Source of the DNA: an uncultured Gammaproteobacteria bacterium
Lineage (GTDB): Bacteria > Patescibacteriota > Microgenomatia > Levybacterales > UBA12049
DNA length: 64,000 nucleotides
Direction of reading: 5' to 3'
NCBI GenBank assembly: GCA_965230895.1
Contig: OZ246394.1
Location: forward strand, 505,316 to 569,315
Shown here: positions 14,088-28,163 of the stretch, in pieces
Numbering within the stretch: the stretch's first letter is position 1
How the letters are laid out: each line of letters opens with the position of its first letter
Position numbers and translations under genes: made by a program
The notes under the pieces: model-generated
Seen by the model: the letters and a program-made list of their open reading frames with translations, nothing else
Told to the model about the DNA's origin: nothing
Database searches by the model: none

Positions 14088-14163
14088 TGGGGTGGCTGAC
14101 GGGAATCGGACCCGCGACATTCAGTACCACAAACTGACGCTCTACCCCTGAGCTACAGCCACC
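14088..14163 (-). tRNA. tRNA-His (GTG) with encoded G-1 and encoded CCA
   Basis: Cloverleaf folded by hand. Acceptor GTGGCTG/CAGCCAC, D-arm GCTC-AGGGGTA-GAGC, anticodon arm TCAGT-TTGTGGT-ACTGA, discriminator C, 5' extra G pairing with C73. Confidence 0.85.
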
Positions 14164-14164
14164 A

Positions 14165-14410
14165 TTATTTGAAGAGTTCGTTTCTAATTTCTCTTCCGAC
14201 ACCACTTTTAAAGTATTTTTCTAATTCTCTCGCTTCTGCTCTACTTTGAACTATCTCTACATGAACTAATATAAATGGTCCTCTATGCAAGGTTGATGGT
14301 GTTGAATGAGTTCCTTGATTGTGCTGATCCATTCTTCTACCGATATCATTAGTGATACCTGTGTAGAATTTACCATCTTTTACGCTCTTAATTATATAGC
14401 AGAAATACAT
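14165..14410 (-). CDS. Mini GIY-YIG nuclease-domain protein (81 aa), paralog 1
   Basis: YFCYII...GKFYTGIT...RRMDQH matches the GIY-x10-YIG N-terminal motif. Abuts tRNA-His. Confidence 0.8.
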   Translation of the reverse strand: MYFCYIIKSVKDGKFYTGITNDIGRRMDQHNQGTHSTPSTLHRGPFILVHVEIVQSRAEARELEKYFKSGVGREIRNELFK

Positions 14411-14414
14411 AGAT

Positions 14415-14458
14415 CTCTACCCCTGACCTGCCTGCCGTCAGGCAGGGCTACAGCCACC
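14415..14458 (-). repeat. Duplicated copy of tRNA-His nt -1..23 interrupted by a perfect 8-bp/4-nt-loop hairpin. It is a direct repeat of 14140..14163.
   Basis: ctctacccctga + cctgcctgccgtcaggcagg + gctacagccacc. The outer 24 nt are identical to the 5' part of the adjacent tRNA-His gene. Confidence 0.85.
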
Positions 14459-14526
14459 ATTTGTATAGATAAGTATACCAATTTTTGAATTAAGTTTAAA
14501 GTACCAACTTATAGTATAATACTAGC

Positions 14527-18820: not shown

Positions 18821-19819
18821 ATGATTCGGTTGAAAACGCAGGCAAAAACCCGTAGAAAATCCTCAAAAAAAGAAAACTATTTAAAGAAATTATCATTTAA
18901 TTTTGCATCTCAGAGTGTTGTAATTTTTCTTGTTGTAGCGTTCTTTGGTTTTGAAATCTTCCTTGCACCCACTGCAACTGCAGACCAACTTCCTATAACA
19001 AAACCAACCAATGTGACAATTGCATCAAATTTGTTAGTCTCTCCAACACCTGAACCGACAATTTCACTTCCATTAATGGAAGATTTATCTGAATCTTTAA
19101 AACCTGAAATAACTTCAGAAGCTGCAAAAATTGGACCTTCACAGGCAGAAGATTATTGTATGAATGTTCCTGTCGTTATGTACCATCATGTCCAACCACT
19201 TGATATGTCTGATCTTCTTGGCCACAAAGCACTTACACTTGATAGCACAATCTTTGACGAACAAATGCAATATCTTTCTGATCAAGGATATAAAGCACTT
19301 GCTGCTGAAGACCTGGTCAATGCCTTAGAAACAAGACAACCTCTTCCTGAAAAAAGCATTATCATCACAATTGATGACGGCTATGATGATAATTACACAT
19401 ACGCTTTTATGTCTGCAAAAAAGCATCATATGATTATGAATTTTATGATCCCAACTGGACTTATCGGTAAATCAGGATATATGAATTGGGATCATTTGAA
19501 AGAAATGCATGCAAATCCTTACGTTCGAATTTATAACCATACCACATCGCACGCTCCGCTTGGCTTGATTGATAAAGATAAAATCACAATGGAAGTCAAA
19601 ACAGCAAATGAACAGTTGGCCGCAGAACTCGGTTTGGATAATAAAATCGTTACCTATCCTTATGGATCATACGATGATGAGGCCGTCGAGGATCTGAAAG
19701 AACTTGGAATGACAGCAGCTTTTACTACTGATATGGGAACAGAACAATGTCTTTCAAAAATCATGACCCTCCCACGACTCAGAATCGGAAACGCCCCAAT
19801 GAGCGACTACGGTTTCTAA
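18821..19819 (+). CDS. Polysaccharide deacetylase (NodB homology) with N-terminal TM anchor
   Basis: IIITIDDGYDDNYTYAF NodB motif 1. His-containing downstream motifs. Confidence 0.75.
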   Translation: MIRLKTQAKTRRKSSKKENYLKKLSFNFASQSVVIFLVVAFFGFEIFLAPTATADQLPITKPTNVTIASNLLVSPTPEPTISLPLMEDLSESLKPEITSEAAKIGPSQAEDYCMNVPVVMYHHVQPLDMSDLLGHKALTLDSTIFDEQMQYLSDQGYKALAAEDLVNALETRQPLPEKSIIITIDDGYDDNYTYAFMSAKKHHMIMNFMIPTGLIGKSGYMNWDHLKEMHANPYVRIYNHTTSHAPLGLIDKDKITMEVKTANEQLAAELGLDNKIVTYPYGSYDDEAVEDLKELGMTAAFTTDMGTEQCLSKIMTLPRLRIGNAPMSDYGF

Positions 19820-19825
19820 ACCTTC

Positions 19826-19854
19826 GTCATTGCGAGCGTAGCGCGGCAATCTCA
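19826..19854. repeat. Left 29-bp terminal inverted repeat of the GIY-YIG cassette
   Basis: gtcattgcgagcgtagcgcggcaatctca. Its reverse complement recurs at 20149..20177 with one mismatch. Confidence 0.85.
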
Positions 19855-19855
19855 T

Positions 19856-20143
19856 TTAAAGAATCTTCTTATATAAATCTTCCCACTCAGGATTCACGTT
19901 TTCTATTAATATTACTTTCTTTTTTCGCGATCCTGATTTTAATTGTTTTTCTCTAAGAATTGCTTCTTCTATTTCCTGATATTGTTCGTAATAAACTAGT
20001 TTATTGACATTATATTTTTGAGTAAATCCTTTTGTTGTCTTATGTTTATGTTGGTATACACGCTTTAGAAGATCACTACAAACTCCAATATAGAGTGTTG
20101 TATTCCATTCGTTGGTCAATATATAAATATATGAATACTTCAT
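19856..20143 (-). CDS. Mini GIY-YIG nuclease-domain protein (95 aa), paralog 2
   Basis: YSYIYILTNEWNTTLYIGVCSDLLKRVYQH GIY-YIG motif. Flanked by inverted repeats. Confidence 0.8.
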   Translation of the reverse strand: MKYSYIYILTNEWNTTLYIGVCSDLLKRVYQHKHKTTKGFTQKYNVNKLVYYEQYQEIEEAILREKQLKSGSRKKKVILIENVNPEWEDLYKKIL

Positions 20144-20148
20144 TATTG

Positions 20149-20177
20149 TGAGATTGCCACGCTACGCTCGCAATGAC
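20149..20177. repeat. Right 29-bp terminal inverted repeat of the GIY-YIG cassette
   Basis: tgagattgccacgctacgctcgcaatgac is the reverse complement of the left repeat (28/29 match). Confidence 0.85.
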
Positions 20178-20185
20178 GGGTATAC

Positions 20186-21430
20186 TTACACTAGGAACTC
20201 CATATCTCGTACTCCCCCGAAGGCAATTCGATCAATAATAAGATTGTCCATATCAGCCATAGTCCCAGGAACAACAGTAAATTCACCATACTTATCATTA
20301 AGCGTATCTGCAACATCGGCAACCCGACGGGCTTTGCGTGAATCTTCCTCAAAGAGCATTAGCTGACGACTATCATACTCAGATAGTTGATAACAAGAAA
20401 CTCCTAGCTGGGAAACTTTTTTTGCTTCAGGCTGTGCATCAAAAATCTTCATGGCATGCTTATAGAGGTCAAGCGTTGTATATAATTCTGTGTGCATAAG
20501 TCTGCCGCGATGCCACGAAGTATAATCTCTATAGTGAAACCACATATGCACCCCATGCGCGACCAGCCCTTTTTTGCGTAGTCTTCTTCCCATCTTTTCG
20601 CAAAGCTTCATAATCAATCGTGACAATTCCCGATGATCATTAGTCGCAATCTTGATTGCATATTGGTGCCCAATTGATTTCGTCGGAAAGTCACGTTGAT
20701 CAGCCTCATATCCACGCAATTTCTCAAACCATCGACTTCCGATAACACTTCGAAAAACATCCTTATGTAATTTCTTACCTGACGCATGGAAGAAATCTAG
20801 CGGAGTGAGTATCCCATGTGCATTAAGCCGAGCTTGATAGCGGACATTTATCCCGCAAAAATCAAGCAATGTTGCCTCTTTATAGGTTTCAAGTAAATTT
20901 GTGTGATCAATTACTGTTAGTCCGTCAGGCTTGTGAAGTGTCGCCCCCAATTTGGCAAGGAACATATTGGTAGAGATCCCAATACTACATCGTATCCACT
21001 CTCCTATTTCCACTTTCATACGAGCTTTTATTTCTTTAGCTATGGAAACAAGATCAGGTCGTAACTGATGCGCTTCACGAAAATCGAGAATTGCTTCATC
21101 AATAGATTTGGCGGTAACGTCAGGTGTGTAAGAATGAAAAATATTCATAAAGCGTTGGTGGACATCTCTATACTTTGGGGGATCCGGAGTACGGACGACC
21201 ACCTGAGAAGATATTGCCTGGGCATCTTGCACACGCATTCCCATCTTTATACCAATTGCCTTCGCCTCAATTGAGGGGGCTAATATGAATGCATTTGGAG
21301 TTCCATATGCAGCAACGACGACTGGTTTCCCACGAAGAAGAGGATTTGCCTGTTGCTCAATTGAGGCAAAGCACGAGTTGAGATCAATGTGCATGAGTAA
21401 AGGCTTATCGCGGTTAATTAGGGTTTCCAT
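20186..21430 (-). CDS. dinB: DNA polymerase IV (Y-family). Likely start at METLIN (21430), although the ORF continues to 21472.
   Basis: HIDLNSCFASIEQ catalytic motif and Y-family palm/fingers conservation. Sits in a lexA-linked cassette. Confidence 0.88.
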   Translation of the reverse strand: METLINRDKPLLMHIDLNSCFASIEQQANPLLRGKPVVVAAYGTPNAFILAPSIEAKAIGIKMGMRVQDAQAISSQVVVRTPDPPKYRDVHQRFMNIFHSYTPDVTAKSIDEAILDFREAHQLRPDLVSIAKEIKARMKVEIGEWIRCSIGISTNMFLAKLGATLHKPDGLTVIDHTNLLETYKEATLLDFCGINVRYQARLNAHGILTPLDFFHASGKKLHKDVFRSVIGSRWFEKLRGYEADQRDFPTKSIGHQYAIKIATNDHRELSRLIMKLCEKMGRRLRKKGLVAHGVHMWFHYRDYTSWHRGRLMHTELYTTLDLYKHAMKIFDAQPEAKKVSQLGVSCYQLSEYDSRQLMLFEEDSRKARRVADVADTLNDKYGEFTVVPGTMADMDNLIIDRIAFGGVRDMEFLV

Positions 21431-21674
21431 CAGATACCTCCTCCAAAATCCAATGTAAGGTATCAGGATCATGTTTCAATCGAAACGCTAAGGTATCGGA
21501 GCAAACATGAAAGACATGAAAGACCGTACGGCCCTCGCGAACCTTATGGTGATACCCGACCTTCGTAATGAGATAATCCCGACCGTTCCATCTAATCTTA
21601 TATGGAGCGACTTTCCCCTCATGTTGTCTGTAGATTGTAATGACATCAATTTTCTCATGAATCTTTTCTAGCAT
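21414..21674 (-). CDS. Hypothetical 86-aa protein encoded between lexA and dinB. Possible Y-polymerase accessory.
   Basis: ORF overlaps the dinB start by a few codons. Same strand as lexA and dinB. Confidence 0.45.
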   Translation of the reverse strand: MLEKIHEKIDVITIYRQHEGKVAPYKIRWNGRDYLITKVGYHHKVREGRTVFHVFHVCSDTLAFRLKHDPDTLHWILEEVSDGNPN

Positions 21675-21861
21675 GGTAGTTAATAATTCTCACTTGTCCG
21701 CCTCGCTGCCATTGTTGTGGCAATCTATATCTGGATTCGGGTTCTTCAGTTACCGATTTTGTGGTTCCGGCAAAATCGACCACTGATGAACGTATACCTG
21801 TAAAAATAGACTGCCTTTTTAGCGAGACGGGCAACCAAGAATTGAAGGCGAATCCGGCAAT

Positions 21862-22431
21862 TTACAAATACTTCCGGATCACGCTGATGACCACTCCTCC
21901 GATCTCTAAGCTTTCTTTCGGACGAATGATTGGATAATCTTTATTTGCCGGAACTAACTCAATCGCACCATTTCTTTTGAAGTAATACTTTACTGTCCAT
22001 TCATTGTCAACAATTGCTGCCACAATGTCCCCATTTTTAGGTATACGATTTGGATCGACGATTATCTTATCACCCTCACCGATCAGCGCTTCGATCATTG
22101 AATCCCCGGAGACAGTTAGAAAATAGATGTCTCCTTGCACGTCGTACAAATACCGGAATAAATCAATGTTATCGTGATGAGTTTCAAATGCAGGCATTGG
22201 ATAACCTGCTTTAATTGTCCCCAAATGAGGAATTGCGAAGAGATTTTTTGGAAGGAGTTTACCCTTTTCTCCTTTCTCCAAAATCCCTGCTTCTATTAAT
22301 TTAGATATCAATTTAAAACTTGCATTCTTGGAAGAAAATCCAAAGAGTTCAGTCATTTCTTCATAGGTTGGAAGCCGCTTCTCAAAGCGATAAAACTTTC
22401 GTAATTTCTTGATTGCCTCATCGATTTTCAT
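21862..22431 (-). CDS. lexA: LexA repressor (S24 peptidase). True start is likely MKIDEAI at 22431, because the longer ORF reads through its own operator.
   Basis: N-terminal winged-helix domain, GDSM Ser nucleophile, and downstream catalytic Lys. Tandem SOS boxes immediately upstream. Confidence 0.88.
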   Translation of the reverse strand: MKIDEAIKKLRKFYRFEKRLPTYEEMTELFGFSSKNASFKLISKLIEAGILEKGEKGKLLPKNLFAIPHLGTIKAGYPMPAFETHHDNIDLFRYLYDVQGDIYFLTVSGDSMIEALIGEGDKIIVDPNRIPKNGDIVAAIVDNEWTVKYYFKRNGAIELVPANKDYPIIRPKESLEIGGVVISVIRKYL

Positions 22432-22443
22432 ATCTTTTTTGGT

Positions 22444-22490
22444 GAACAGGTGTTTACCAAGACTACTATACAGTGAACAAGTGTTCACTG
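22444..22490. promoter_or_regulatory. Tandem LexA (Cheo-type) boxes: GAACaggtGTTt (22444-22455) and the perfect palindrome cagtGAACaagtGTTCactg (22471-22490)
   Basis: GAAC-N4-GTTC consensus of Gram-positive-type SOS boxes, directly upstream of lexA. Confidence 0.75.
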
Positions 22491-22922
22491 TCAATACCCC
22501 AGTTTAATTCTTTGTTTTGAGGCTAATATCGAGTAAATGTAGATAAAATGTCAGAACTAGTGTATGTTGACAGGCATGAATAATGGGTTTATACTTAAGT
22601 AAGATTCATGTAAGAATCAAATTTTTGCCCCTCCCCGCCTATGGCGAGGCTCGCTTAAGCGGCTTCACGGGATCGACAAAAATTATTTACAGAGATTAAA
22701 TACAGAGCTGACGTTGTAATAGAGTAGATAATGGTTATGGGAGTTCGTTGTAACTGGAGTAAATAGTTTTACGATCAACATTTTCTCATAATGGTATCTT
22801 CTCATTCAATGGAATTACTATAATACTCTATTATATGCTAATTTTGCGTTAATCAGTCAAAATAGCTTGAATAAGAAGTGTTTAATTTTTTGAGCGATAA
22901 AACTATAGGATAAAATTACCTG

Positions 22923-27714: not shown

Positions 27715-27788
27715 GCACCCGTAGCTCAGCTGGATAGAGCACTTGACTTCGGATCAGGGGGTCGGGGGTTCGAATCCCTCCGGGTGTA
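27715..27788 (+). tRNA. tRNA-Arg (TCG)
   Basis: Hand-folded. Acceptor GCACCCG, D-arm GCTC-AGCTGGATA-GAGC, anticodon loop CTTCGGA, T-arm GGGGG-TTCGAAT-CCCTC. No encoded CCA. Confidence 0.8.
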
Positions 27789-27902
27789 CGACGCACCAGT
27801 CGGTGCATCGCTTCGCTGCGATACAAAAAAGCGTTATTTTAAGAAAAATATTCTAAACTGGATGTGCGTCAGGGATGTACCGTATGGTACGTCCCCAAAT
27901 CC

Positions 27903-28163
27903 ATGTTCTACTACGTCTGTATCTTACATAATTATTCAAAAAGTTTTATTTATACGGGTTACTCGGAAGATTTAAAACAAAGACTAACTTCTCATAAAGC
28001 AGGGAAAAATAAATCAACAAAGGCTTTTCTCCCATTAGAACTCATCCATTATGAAGCGTATAAGAGTAAAACTGACGCTAAAAGAAGAGAGTTATACTTT
28101 AAAACCACGAAGGGTAAAACAACGTTAAGAACTATGCTTAAAGACTATTTTAATGGAGATTAA
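27903..28163 (+). CDS. Mini GIY-YIG nuclease-domain protein (86 aa from the internal ATG), paralog 3
   Basis: MFYYVCILHNYSKSFIYTGYSEDLKQRLTSH aligns with the other two paralogs. Lies downstream of tRNA-Arg. Confidence 0.75.
   Translation: MFYYVCILHNYSKSFIYTGYSEDLKQRLTSHKAGKNKSTKAFLPLELIHYEAYKSKTDAKRRELYFKTTKGKTTLRTMLKDYFNGD

Follow-up and report, generated by a model that had tools for sequence, protein, structure and literature searches.

A GIY-YIG nuclease gene between two inverted CGTC-tagged hairpin repeats, a likely Ssn/SRM module in a Levybacteria-like genome

Introduction

What kind of genetic element is a 354-bp unit that encloses one short open reading frame (ORF) within two nearly perfect inverted repeats and sits between two convergent genes? 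This question is raised by a stretch of 64,000 nucleotides of contig OZ246394.1 (hereafter the window, meaning the whole 64-kb stretch), with which relatives and homologs were compared as loci of about 6 kb. The ORF encodes a 95-aa GIY-YIG protein, and an earlier note on this DNA had described the unit as similar to a miniature inverted-repeat transposable element (MITE), with repeats belonging to a dispersed family and the gene as passenger or as mobilizing endonuclease, or alternatively as a long-range RNA stem. Our analysis leads us to regard the unit as, in all likelihood, an Ssn/SRM module, namely a small GIY-YIG nuclease encoded between two inverted copies of its cognate repeat.

The Ssn system has been described by Chenal et al. 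(2025, Nat Commun, PMC11893778). In that study, SsnA of Neisseria meningitidis (NMV_0044) is a 94-aa single-domain GIY-YIG protein whose binding site is the Neisseria NTS repeat, CGTCATTCCCGCGMAVGCGGGAATCYRG; it binds the folded repeat solely as single-stranded DNA (ssDNA), on the CGTC strand only, and cuts a few nt upstream, within the unconserved flank. Thousands of Ssn homologs (CDD cd10448) are mentioned, their genes being typically flanked by “Ssn-related motifs” (SRMs), and the resemblance of NTS-ssnA-NTS to an insertion sequence (IS) is accompanied by the hypothesis of a mobilizing role (PMC11893778). The system is thus already published; the repeat variant and the protein subclass reported below are not mentioned in the text of that paper.

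Related repeats have been studied from another angle by Di Nocera et al. (2013, BMC Genomics, PMC3733652), who described stem-loops resembling repetitive extragenic palindromic (REP) elements, with an unpaired CGTC tag (or TGTC/CCTC), a continuous stem of 8-9 bp starting with A-T, a loop of 4-5 nt and a short, 3-nt tail. These CGTC-tagged REPs, which include Neisseria dRS3 and Rickettsia RPE-4/6, occur in tens to thousands of copies per genome, mostly as opposite-orientation pairs at gene 3' ends, and were reported without a dedicated enzyme (PMC3733652).

Results

Anatomy of the unit

The two arms of the unit (19825-19854 and 20149-20178) were retrieved by repeat search as a 30-nt inverted pair, complementary at 29 of 30 positions (97%) and 294 nt apart, which is the best inverted repeat of the window. 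Near-perfect inverted repeats directly outside the GIY-YIG ORF had been proposed from a 29-mer, which we found at 19826-19854 (plus strand, no mismatch) and 20149-20177 (minus strand, one mismatch), with no match in 100 shuffles. The proposal holds, and one extra C/G pair extends the arms to 30 nt and the unit to 354 bp. The 95-aa ORF (19856-20143, minus strand) was confirmed as well, with one arm 1 nt from its stop codon and the other arm 5 nt from its start codon. The unit as a whole lies between two convergent genes, both intact, from which it is separated by spacers of 5 nt and 7 nt. Translation of the repeats into spurious ORFs, another earlier observation, is real: both the LRHCERSAAIS and the MRLPRYARNDG peptides are present. 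Literature queries with such peptide and DNA signatures yielded unrelated primer matches only.

Read 5' to 3' on the plus strand, the left arm (19825-19854) is an SRM-like hairpin unit with the same grammar as the Neisseria NTS (PMC11893778): a CGTC tag (19825-19828), an ATTGC segment (19829-19833) that pairs with GCAAT (19846-19850), the centre GA-GCG-TAG-CGC-G, and the tail CTCA (19851-19854). The right arm (20149-20178), read on the minus strand (CGTCATTGCGAGCGTAGCGTGGCAATCTCA, CGTC tag at 20178-20175), is a second such unit; it differs from the left arm by a single C to T change, and a G-T wobble there preserves the distal stem. Both arms therefore read CGTC-ATTGC...GCAAT-C and share with the NTS the CGTC, the ATT..AAT stem and the C that follows, so that the gene has on both sides an oriented hairpin with an unpaired 5' GTC and a C right after the palindrome, the positions on which cleavage and binding by Ssn depend (PMC11893778). 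The geometry of each arm is a helix of 5 bp (from A-T, T-A, T-A), an internal loop, a further 3 bp closed by a 3-nt loop, and the tail CTC(A).

The composition of the unit is atypical. Against a G+C content of 37% in the window, the arms reach 57-60%, within the top 1% of 30-nt windows, and the ORF has 27%, within the lowest 0.5% of 288-nt windows. Even with 2 mismatches allowed in the 12-nt head, no further copy of the arms was found in the 64 kb. The check for a target-site duplication was negative at the unit edges, where the left flank ACCTT and the right flank GGTAT hold no direct repeat, and an Rfam scan of the whole window at gathering thresholds returned two tRNAs only and no RNA family at the arms.

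The nuclease

The ORF product matches the Pfam GIY-YIG family (PF01541) at 2.1e-13 over residues 4-75 and displays no other domain; with 95 aa, it falls among the single-domain GIY-YIG proteins of less than 150 aa considered by Chenal et al. (2025), for which the N. meningitidis SsnA of 94 aa is the reference. Homology was measured with the gonococcal ssnA ortholog as a proxy for the meningococcal reference CAX49033.1. This ortholog was retrieved by tblastn of the window protein against PLSDB (7.3-Gb database), which gave one gonococcal locus (E = 8e-17); its 94-aa ORF carries Tyr6 and Tyr17 and is surrounded by ten canonical NTS repeats within 3.3 kb, which identifies it as the gonococcal ssnA ortholog. 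The locus (L220) corresponds to positions 1880787-1884056 of NZ_CP119140.1 which, like NZ_CP119142.1, is a 2.17-Mb Neisseria gonorrhoeae chromosome filed in PLSDB as a plasmid. The two proteins are 50% identical, with 90 of 94 residues aligned without gap and a pairwise E-value of 1e-30, within the blastp bounds that Chenal et al. set against N. meningitidis SsnA (E < 1e-10, query coverage of 75% or more), as assessed with the gonococcal proxy.

Residues Y6, Y17 and E64 of SsnA align to Y7, Y18 and E65 of the window protein, which possesses all six canonical GIY-YIG catalytic positions (Y7, Y18, R28, H32, E65 and N84), invariant in 22 members of its clade. An AlphaFold2 model (pLDDT 92.7) shows one compact GIY-YIG fold, with UPF0213 BH0048, Slx1 and UvrC-N as the best structural matches. 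A single-sequence search of the PDB gave no match, and a profile search reached UPF0213 proteins only (E = 2.6e-7), with no Ssn among the solved structures. These UPF0213/YhbQ-type proteins (PDB 1ZG2, BH0048, and 1YWL, EF2693) are the closest solved structures and agree in size and fold (Foldseek E = 2.4e-4, 27% identity), but belong to another CDD family; they are uncharacterized proteins for which no hairpin-repeat association has been described.

A free-standing homing endonuclease like those of phages or introns, cleaving an empty double-stranded site and being copied into it by repair, would be another way to account for a lone GIY-YIG gene whose presence varies among relatives (see below). 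The single NCBIfam match, weak and well below cut-off, links the N-terminus with TIGR01453, a family of group I intron endonucleases (E = 1.8e-4), and points in that direction. I-TevI-type enzymes, however, have a linker and binding domains, and the 95-aa protein lacks any such DNA-binding extension; a search of 50,697 phage records retrieved no homolog, the locus offers no intron or intein context, and flanking hairpin repeats are not typical of homing endonuclease genes. We consider this explanation most improbable.

The repeat

In the homolog loci, the repeats to which the arms belong have conserved ends, CGTCAYTGCGAG ... GCARTCT, around a variable centre and often form arrays of alternating orientation. 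Among 200 units of this class, hereafter called TGCGAG-type, the base after GCAATC is a pyrimidine in 97%, and the 10 nt upstream of CGTC are unconserved. The unit centres are hypervariable, 7-34 nt long (the scan pattern admitted up to 34 nt), unrelated in sequence and usually self-complementary. The two free stem positions covary among the matches listed (T-A 105, C-G 4, T-G 11 and C-A 1; Fisher p = 7e-4), which argues for folding of the CGTC strand into a hairpin.

A scan of species-representative genomes for TGCGAG-type units returned at least 120 stretches, those listed including Bacteroidota, Bradyrhizobium, Rickettsiales, Chloroflexota, Patescibacteria and many other groups. The variant is hence pan-bacterial and not specific to the Candidate Phyla Radiation (CPR). 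The dispersed family proposed earlier does exist in other genomes, although the 64-kb window holds only two copies.

The TGCGAG-type units share with the CGTC-tagged REPs the unpaired CGTC tag, a stem starting with A-T/T-A, a short unpaired tail, an arrangement as opposite dimers and a location at convergent 3' ends, and they occur in the same taxa (Bradyrhizobium, Rickettsiales, Bacteroidota). The total pair number of the arms fits this group, whereas their geometry (interrupted stem, hypervariable centre) differs. Unlike those REPs, the units at this locus flank a nuclease gene and are present as two copies in 64 kb, with none in the loci of four relatives; the family is abundant in other genomes.

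The number of units is itself variable. A set of loci (L007 3291-3800, L009 2069-2350, L008 and L010-L014) all encode one identical GIY-YIG protein, P0020, downstream of which 0, 1, 2, 5 or 7 units are found depending on the strain, with differing unit order and swapped centres; in one L007 unit of 126 nt, the centre has grown to about 100 nt. The tail-to-tail spacers of these loci are conserved (about 21 nt, AAAATATRACTGCATTCCTTA), which suggests a doublet of about 87 nt as their repeating module.

Association of gene and repeat

The association was surveyed in 80 metagenomic loci encoding proteins 52-64% identical to the window protein. A TGCGAG-type unit lies within 500 nt of the gene in 50 of the 80 loci, and on both sides in 39. 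CGTC points away from the gene in the nearest upstream unit in 33 of 43 cases and in the nearest downstream unit in 33 of 46, the latter unit usually abutting or overlapping the stop codon, as it does in the window. With its outward CGTC tags and its stop-adjacent unit, the window cassette thus has the canonical layout of its clade. The published SRM pattern, HGTCWYN(0-2)YYVSBRHN(0-5)WNVSBRGN(0-2)RNCYNB, of which Chenal et al. (2025) require at least one match within 500 bp on either side of the gene, is found at only 9 of the 80 loci.

The reverse survey, centred on the repeats, shows that most copies are dispersed, since only 5 of the 120 loci listed hold a GIY-YIG gene. Among the matches listed, 19 repeat pairs are close, and 16 of them enclose no gene; in these doublets CGTC faces outward, as in the cassette itself, and the two units lie 6-112 nt apart. 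Such doublets are in keeping with the likeness to MITEs put forward in the earlier note; against it, the window unit has no target-site duplication and no second copy of it was found.

The type of repeat also follows the type of protein. We classified 85 distinct proteins by the second residue after REKQ[IL]K, either Gly (G-class; SGSRKKK after REKQLK in the window protein) or Trp (W-class; KWNRAWK in Neisseria). For G-class proteins, 57 cases have TGCGAG-type repeats and no case has repeats of the published pattern; W-class proteins were found with TGCGAG-type repeats in 2 cases, with published-pattern repeats in 8 and with neither in the other 12, at least 5 of which carry other CGTC-ATYCC hairpins. 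The pairing is significant by Fisher's test (p = 7e-9, phylogeny not accounted for). As repeat type and protein subclass co-vary, the gene is not the passenger that had been suggested. The model places the class-defining residues in the turn between the Glu65 helix and the basic helix, from which we infer that the segment following the catalytic Glu may help set repeat specificity.

One further locus (L191, 1-3650) contains two Ssn-like genes 2.5 kb apart, with 84% DNA identity over 638 nt including their flanks, and 15 TGCGAG-type units in 3.6 kb; it is a segmental duplication of the whole repeat-gene-repeat block.

These surveys bear on the idea that the arms are ordinary host elements of the REP type (mRNA stabilizers, terminators or gyrase sites), with the gene located there by chance or as a passenger. 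CGTC-tagged REPs, reported without a dedicated enzyme, favour gaps between convergent or unidirectional genes (PMC3733652), and each arm is placed right where one of two convergent genes ends. Yet no copy occurs at the many other gene ends of the window, the repeat-gene association is strong and oriented, the repeat type follows the protein subclass, no intrinsic-terminator signature was detected, and the corresponding junctions of relatives lack both the repeats and the gene. We therefore judge ordinary host repeats to be a very unlikely explanation.

The junction in related genomes

On the map, the unit is preceded by a polysaccharide deacetylase gene (18821-19819, plus strand), and it is followed by a gene for a Y-family, DinB-like DNA polymerase (20186-21472, minus strand), on the same strand as the ssn-like gene and 42 nt upstream of it. 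The dinB gene is the last conserved gene of an operon on the minus strand (20186-22494) that also comprises an 86-aa ORF (21414-21674) and a LexA-like S24 peptidase gene (21862-22494). This cluster, conserved in the related loci L136, L137, L139, L221 and L222, is an SOS-type mutagenesis cassette of a CPR-type genome. The closest named relative of the DinB protein is from Candidatus Levyibacteriota.

The junction between dinB and the deacetylase gene was compared among relatives whose DinB is 74-79% identical. Nothing lies between the two genes in L136 (6-nt overlap), in the P0122 contig (2-nt gap) and in L222 and L223 (4-nt overlap), and other cargo fills the junction elsewhere: a YflT-family gene in L139, a 59-aa ORF in L221. 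In the filled L221 junction, a search for remains of the cassette or SRMs retrieved just the 3' end of dinB, which is conserved, and no SRM-like unit was found in the relatives' junction loci apart from those flanking a cassette of L222 (see below). In the window, the deacetylase and DinB both have C-termini conserved with relatives to the last residue. In the junction comparison that had been proposed, the cassette is thus missing from relatives, and its presence varies.

In L135 (2090-2740), the junction contains an inositol phosphatase gene and a 216-aa gene with a weak Pfam match to Y1_Tnp (IS200/RAYT type, RAYT being the REP-associated tyrosine transposase), so that one and the same junction houses an ssDNA-transposase-like gene in one lineage and a putative ssDNA nuclease gene in another.

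In L222 (1400-1840; DinB 78% identical), the gap separating the 86-aa gene from dinB contains another, different Ssn cassette. The protein of this cassette, of 94 aa and W-class, is 59% identical to the window protein, and its arms, CGTCATTCCTGCGTAGGCAGGAATCCAG and CGTCATTCCTGGCTGGACCAGGAATCCA, are Neisseria-like with CGTC outward. As the window cassette lies 3' of dinB and that of L222 lies 5', two different cassettes occupy two gaps of the same operon in related genomes. Either such cassettes land preferentially in the LexA-like/dinB operon, or there is selection for expression coupled to the SOS response.

Since relatives have an empty junction or other cargo there and L222 has its cassette elsewhere in the operon, the window cassette has been gained or lost at this junction; with only 74-79% DinB identity to these relatives, the boundaries of the insertion are not exact to the nucleotide. 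All seven contigs encoding the identical protein share the gene context of the window, and the closest other protein (72% identity) has another context and different arms. The junction states and the variation in unit number show gain, loss and turnover, but no mechanism. The 29/30 identity of the arms is unusual among cassettes and probably reflects a recent duplication or gene conversion between the two sole copies in the window.

Expression and possible RNA pairing

A promoter and terminator scan around the cassette yielded nothing: there is no promoter-like site between dinB and the ORF and no intrinsic-terminator signature. Both arms are thus probably transcribed, which brings in the possibility that they act in RNA, pairing across the ORF in a read-through transcript to control translation or stability of the nuclease mRNA. 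Folding of a 376-nt sense RNA does join the arms into a stem of at least 30 bp that buries the region upstream of the AUG (minimum free energy -103.9 kcal/mol, z = -8.5), T-G wobbles outnumber C-A mismatches in the unit stems, and fold-back inhibition of read-through transcripts is known from IS10. The z-score, however, restates the presence of an inverted repeat, and in 31 other cassettes of the same architecture the similarity of the two arm centres is that of random pairs (0.53 vs 0.51), with identical centres in 1 of 31. As the arm centres of other cassettes do not match, a conserved long-range RNA stem is not supported. In addition, many genes have repeats on one side only or in arrays, most repeat copies lie far from such genes, and SsnA binds ssDNA and not RNA (PMC11893778). 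The long-range stem suggested earlier therefore forms in the folded RNA of this locus without being a conserved feature, and we regard a regulatory role of it as very unlikely.

Other GIY-YIG genes of the window

Two further GIY-YIG genes are found in the window. The first, an 81-aa ORF (14165-14410, minus strand; Pfam 1.7e-17), ends 2 nt (14163-14164) upstream of a tRNA-His gene (14088-14162). Directly upstream of this ORF, within 14088-14462, lies a repeat of the first 24 nt of the tRNA-His (GGTGGCTGTAGC/TCAGGGGTAGAG), split by a 20-nt near-palindrome, CCTGCCTGACGGCAGGCAGG; from these sequence features, an element seems to have inserted at the tRNA gene's 5' end and duplicated its target. 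The ORF has no CGTC-type arms and, as its match to SsnA spans 29 N-terminal residues only, its product is not an Ssn by the coverage criterion. The second, an 86-aa ORF counted from its ATG (about 27903-28163, plus strand; Pfam 2.2e-13), lies about 110 nt downstream of a tRNA-Arg gene (27715-27789), after which a GCACC-AGTC-GGTGC hairpin but no tRNA duplication was found. Two of the three GIY-YIG genes of the window are hence adjacent to tRNA genes.

Discussion

The assignment of the 354-bp unit as an Ssn/SRM module, which we hold with good confidence, draws on direct observations: its anatomy, the homology of its protein, the grammar of its repeats, the covariation in their stems, the oriented association of gene and repeat, the co-variation of protein and repeat types, and the presence or absence of the cassette among relatives. 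As in the Ssn/NTS system, a protein of about 94-95 aa, here 50% identical with catalytic Tyr/Tyr/Glu aligned, is encoded between oriented hairpins that start with CGTC-ATT and end with AAT-C, and the repeats are dispersed, cluster in alternating orientation and vary in number by strain or species. The two systems differ in the stem, which is an interrupted 5+3-bp helix here (ATTGCGAG...GCAAT) and ATTCCCGCG...GCGGGAAT in Ssn/NTS, in the residues just after the catalytic Glu (Gly-Ser in the window protein, Trp in Neisseria SsnA), in the orientation of the proximal repeats, and in the host, which is of CPR type and holds only the two flanking copies in 64 kb; the present subclass is known from its sequence.

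Several points weigh against this assignment. The published SRM pattern has no match in the whole window: it wants pyrimidines where the arms have GCGAG, and neither arm fits, the YY stem positions failing because the stem reads ATTGCGAG and not ATTCCCGCG. The same pattern gave 9 matches in the gonococcal ssnA locus, used as a positive control, and none in 148 TGCGAG-type units, so that this class as a whole is invisible to it. The folding energy of a single arm is no better than that of shuffles, the proximal stem being only 5 bp long, and the hairpin is consequently argued from covariation and not from thermodynamics. In the gonococcal locus, the units nearest to ssnA point their CGTC toward the gene, opposite to the window clade, whose architecture is thus not identical to that of Neisseria. 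Finally, the homology was measured on sequence against the gonococcal ortholog and not the meningococcal CAX49033.1, and the ssDNA specificity and cut position are extrapolated by analogy from enzymes about 50% identical.

How the protein would bind ssDNA, where it would nick, how the gene would be transcribed and what it would do are proposed as follows. Each arm would be an independent CGTC-tagged hairpin and not one half of a terminal inverted repeat of the transposase type. When the DNA becomes single-stranded, at replication forks, during repair or upon DNA uptake, the CGTC strand of an arm would fold; the nuclease, whose predicted substrate is ssDNA carrying CGTCATTGCGAGCGTAGCGCGGCAATCTCA plus its 5' flank, would bind the hairpin and its asymmetric flanks (GTC and the trailing C) and nick a few nucleotides 5' of the CGTC tag. 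As both tags point outward, the predicted nicks would be on opposite strands, one at either outer edge of the unit by the stop codons of the neighbouring genes. The putative left nick zone (19817-19824, plus strand) takes in the 5-nt spacer and reaches into the stop codon of the deacetylase gene, and the right one (20179-20188, minus strand) spans the 7-nt spacer and the dinB stop codon. A nick in a variable flank agrees with the published cleavage, given that the 10 nt 5' of CGTC are unconserved in 200 units. The module would have entered, or survived at, a variable junction of convergent genes in a CPR-type, Levybacteria-like genome, where it is probably expressed by read-through of the LexA-like/dinB transcript; expression of the ssn-like gene may therefore be induced by DNA damage. 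By analogy, its role may be to restrict incoming repeat-bearing ssDNA, as in Neisseria, or to propagate its own repeat.

The question of mobility leads to the IS-like reading, in which the 354-bp unit would be an autonomous transposon, the gene-less doublets its MITEs, and the nuclease the agent mobilizing both. The unit does resemble insertion sequences and MITEs in that a single gene of atypical composition, between near-perfect inverted ends, fills an intergenic gap that is devoid of it in relatives; a different Ssn cassette lies in the other gap of the L222 operon, most close repeat pairs of other genomes are gene-less doublets, copies are mostly dispersed, arrays vary in length and order among strains encoding an identical protein, and Chenal et al. 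remark on an architecture identical to that of an IS (PMC11893778). The evidence on the other side is nonetheless substantial. There is no target-site duplication and no solo arm beside the one unit in the window, and the search for an identical cassette in another context was negative. The ends are self-folding hairpins which, in most cassettes, differ from each other in their centres, so that they are not copied as a matched pair, and the array changes are equally explicable by recombination between repeats. The only encoded domain is GIY-YIG, with no DDE, HUH-Y1, serine or tyrosine transposase, and the predicted nicks on opposite strands are unlike the peel-and-paste mode of IS200/IS605. 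GIY-YIG enzymes act by hydrolysis of DNA and are not known to catalyse strand transfer; as a hydrolytic nuclease alone cannot join strands, the role of mobilizing endonuclease proposed earlier stays conjectural, and the transposon reading is in our view possible but doubtful.

The REP/REPIN-RAYT and IS200/IS605 systems offer another parallel, as they too associate a single-copy nuclease gene with short flanking hairpins, also found as gene-less inverted doublets or arrays resembling bacterial interspersed mosaic elements, and by analogy the recognition of a folded single strand cut beside the hairpin may be common to all. Their HUH tyrosine transposase, however, forms a covalent intermediate and rejoins DNA, unlike the hydrolytic GIY-YIG enzyme; the tag is GTAG in REP/REPIN-RAYT and CGTC here, and the cuts predicted here are on opposite strands. 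Returning to the Ssn/SRM assignment, we would only tentatively extend it to a class of ssDNA mobile elements of which SRM-ssn-SRM would be the autonomous form, the nuclease nicking 5' of the outward hairpins and host repair or recombination spreading cassettes and doublets. If this were true, Ssn would supply the dedicated enzyme hitherto missing from the CGTC-tagged REP superfamily, the hairpin family that is propagated would be set by the turn following the catalytic Glu (Gly-Ser vs Trp), and the pan-bacterial TGCGAG-type repeats, a source of spurious “RHCE...” and “...PRNDG” ORFs, would be the footprint of G-class enzymes.

For this organism, the present work proposes a precise function for a gene annotated as “GIY-YIG nuclease family protein” and for repeats mistranslated as ORFs, and extends the Ssn/SRM system to a CPR-type genome. 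For the family, reported rates of gene-repeat association are probably too low, since the published pattern misses the TGCGAG class. The two-residue protein signature paired with a repeat stem is a candidate specificity determinant, useful if Ssn enzymes become programmable ssDNA cutters, and the occurrence of two different cassettes in one operon of related genomes provides a starting point on whether these modules move.

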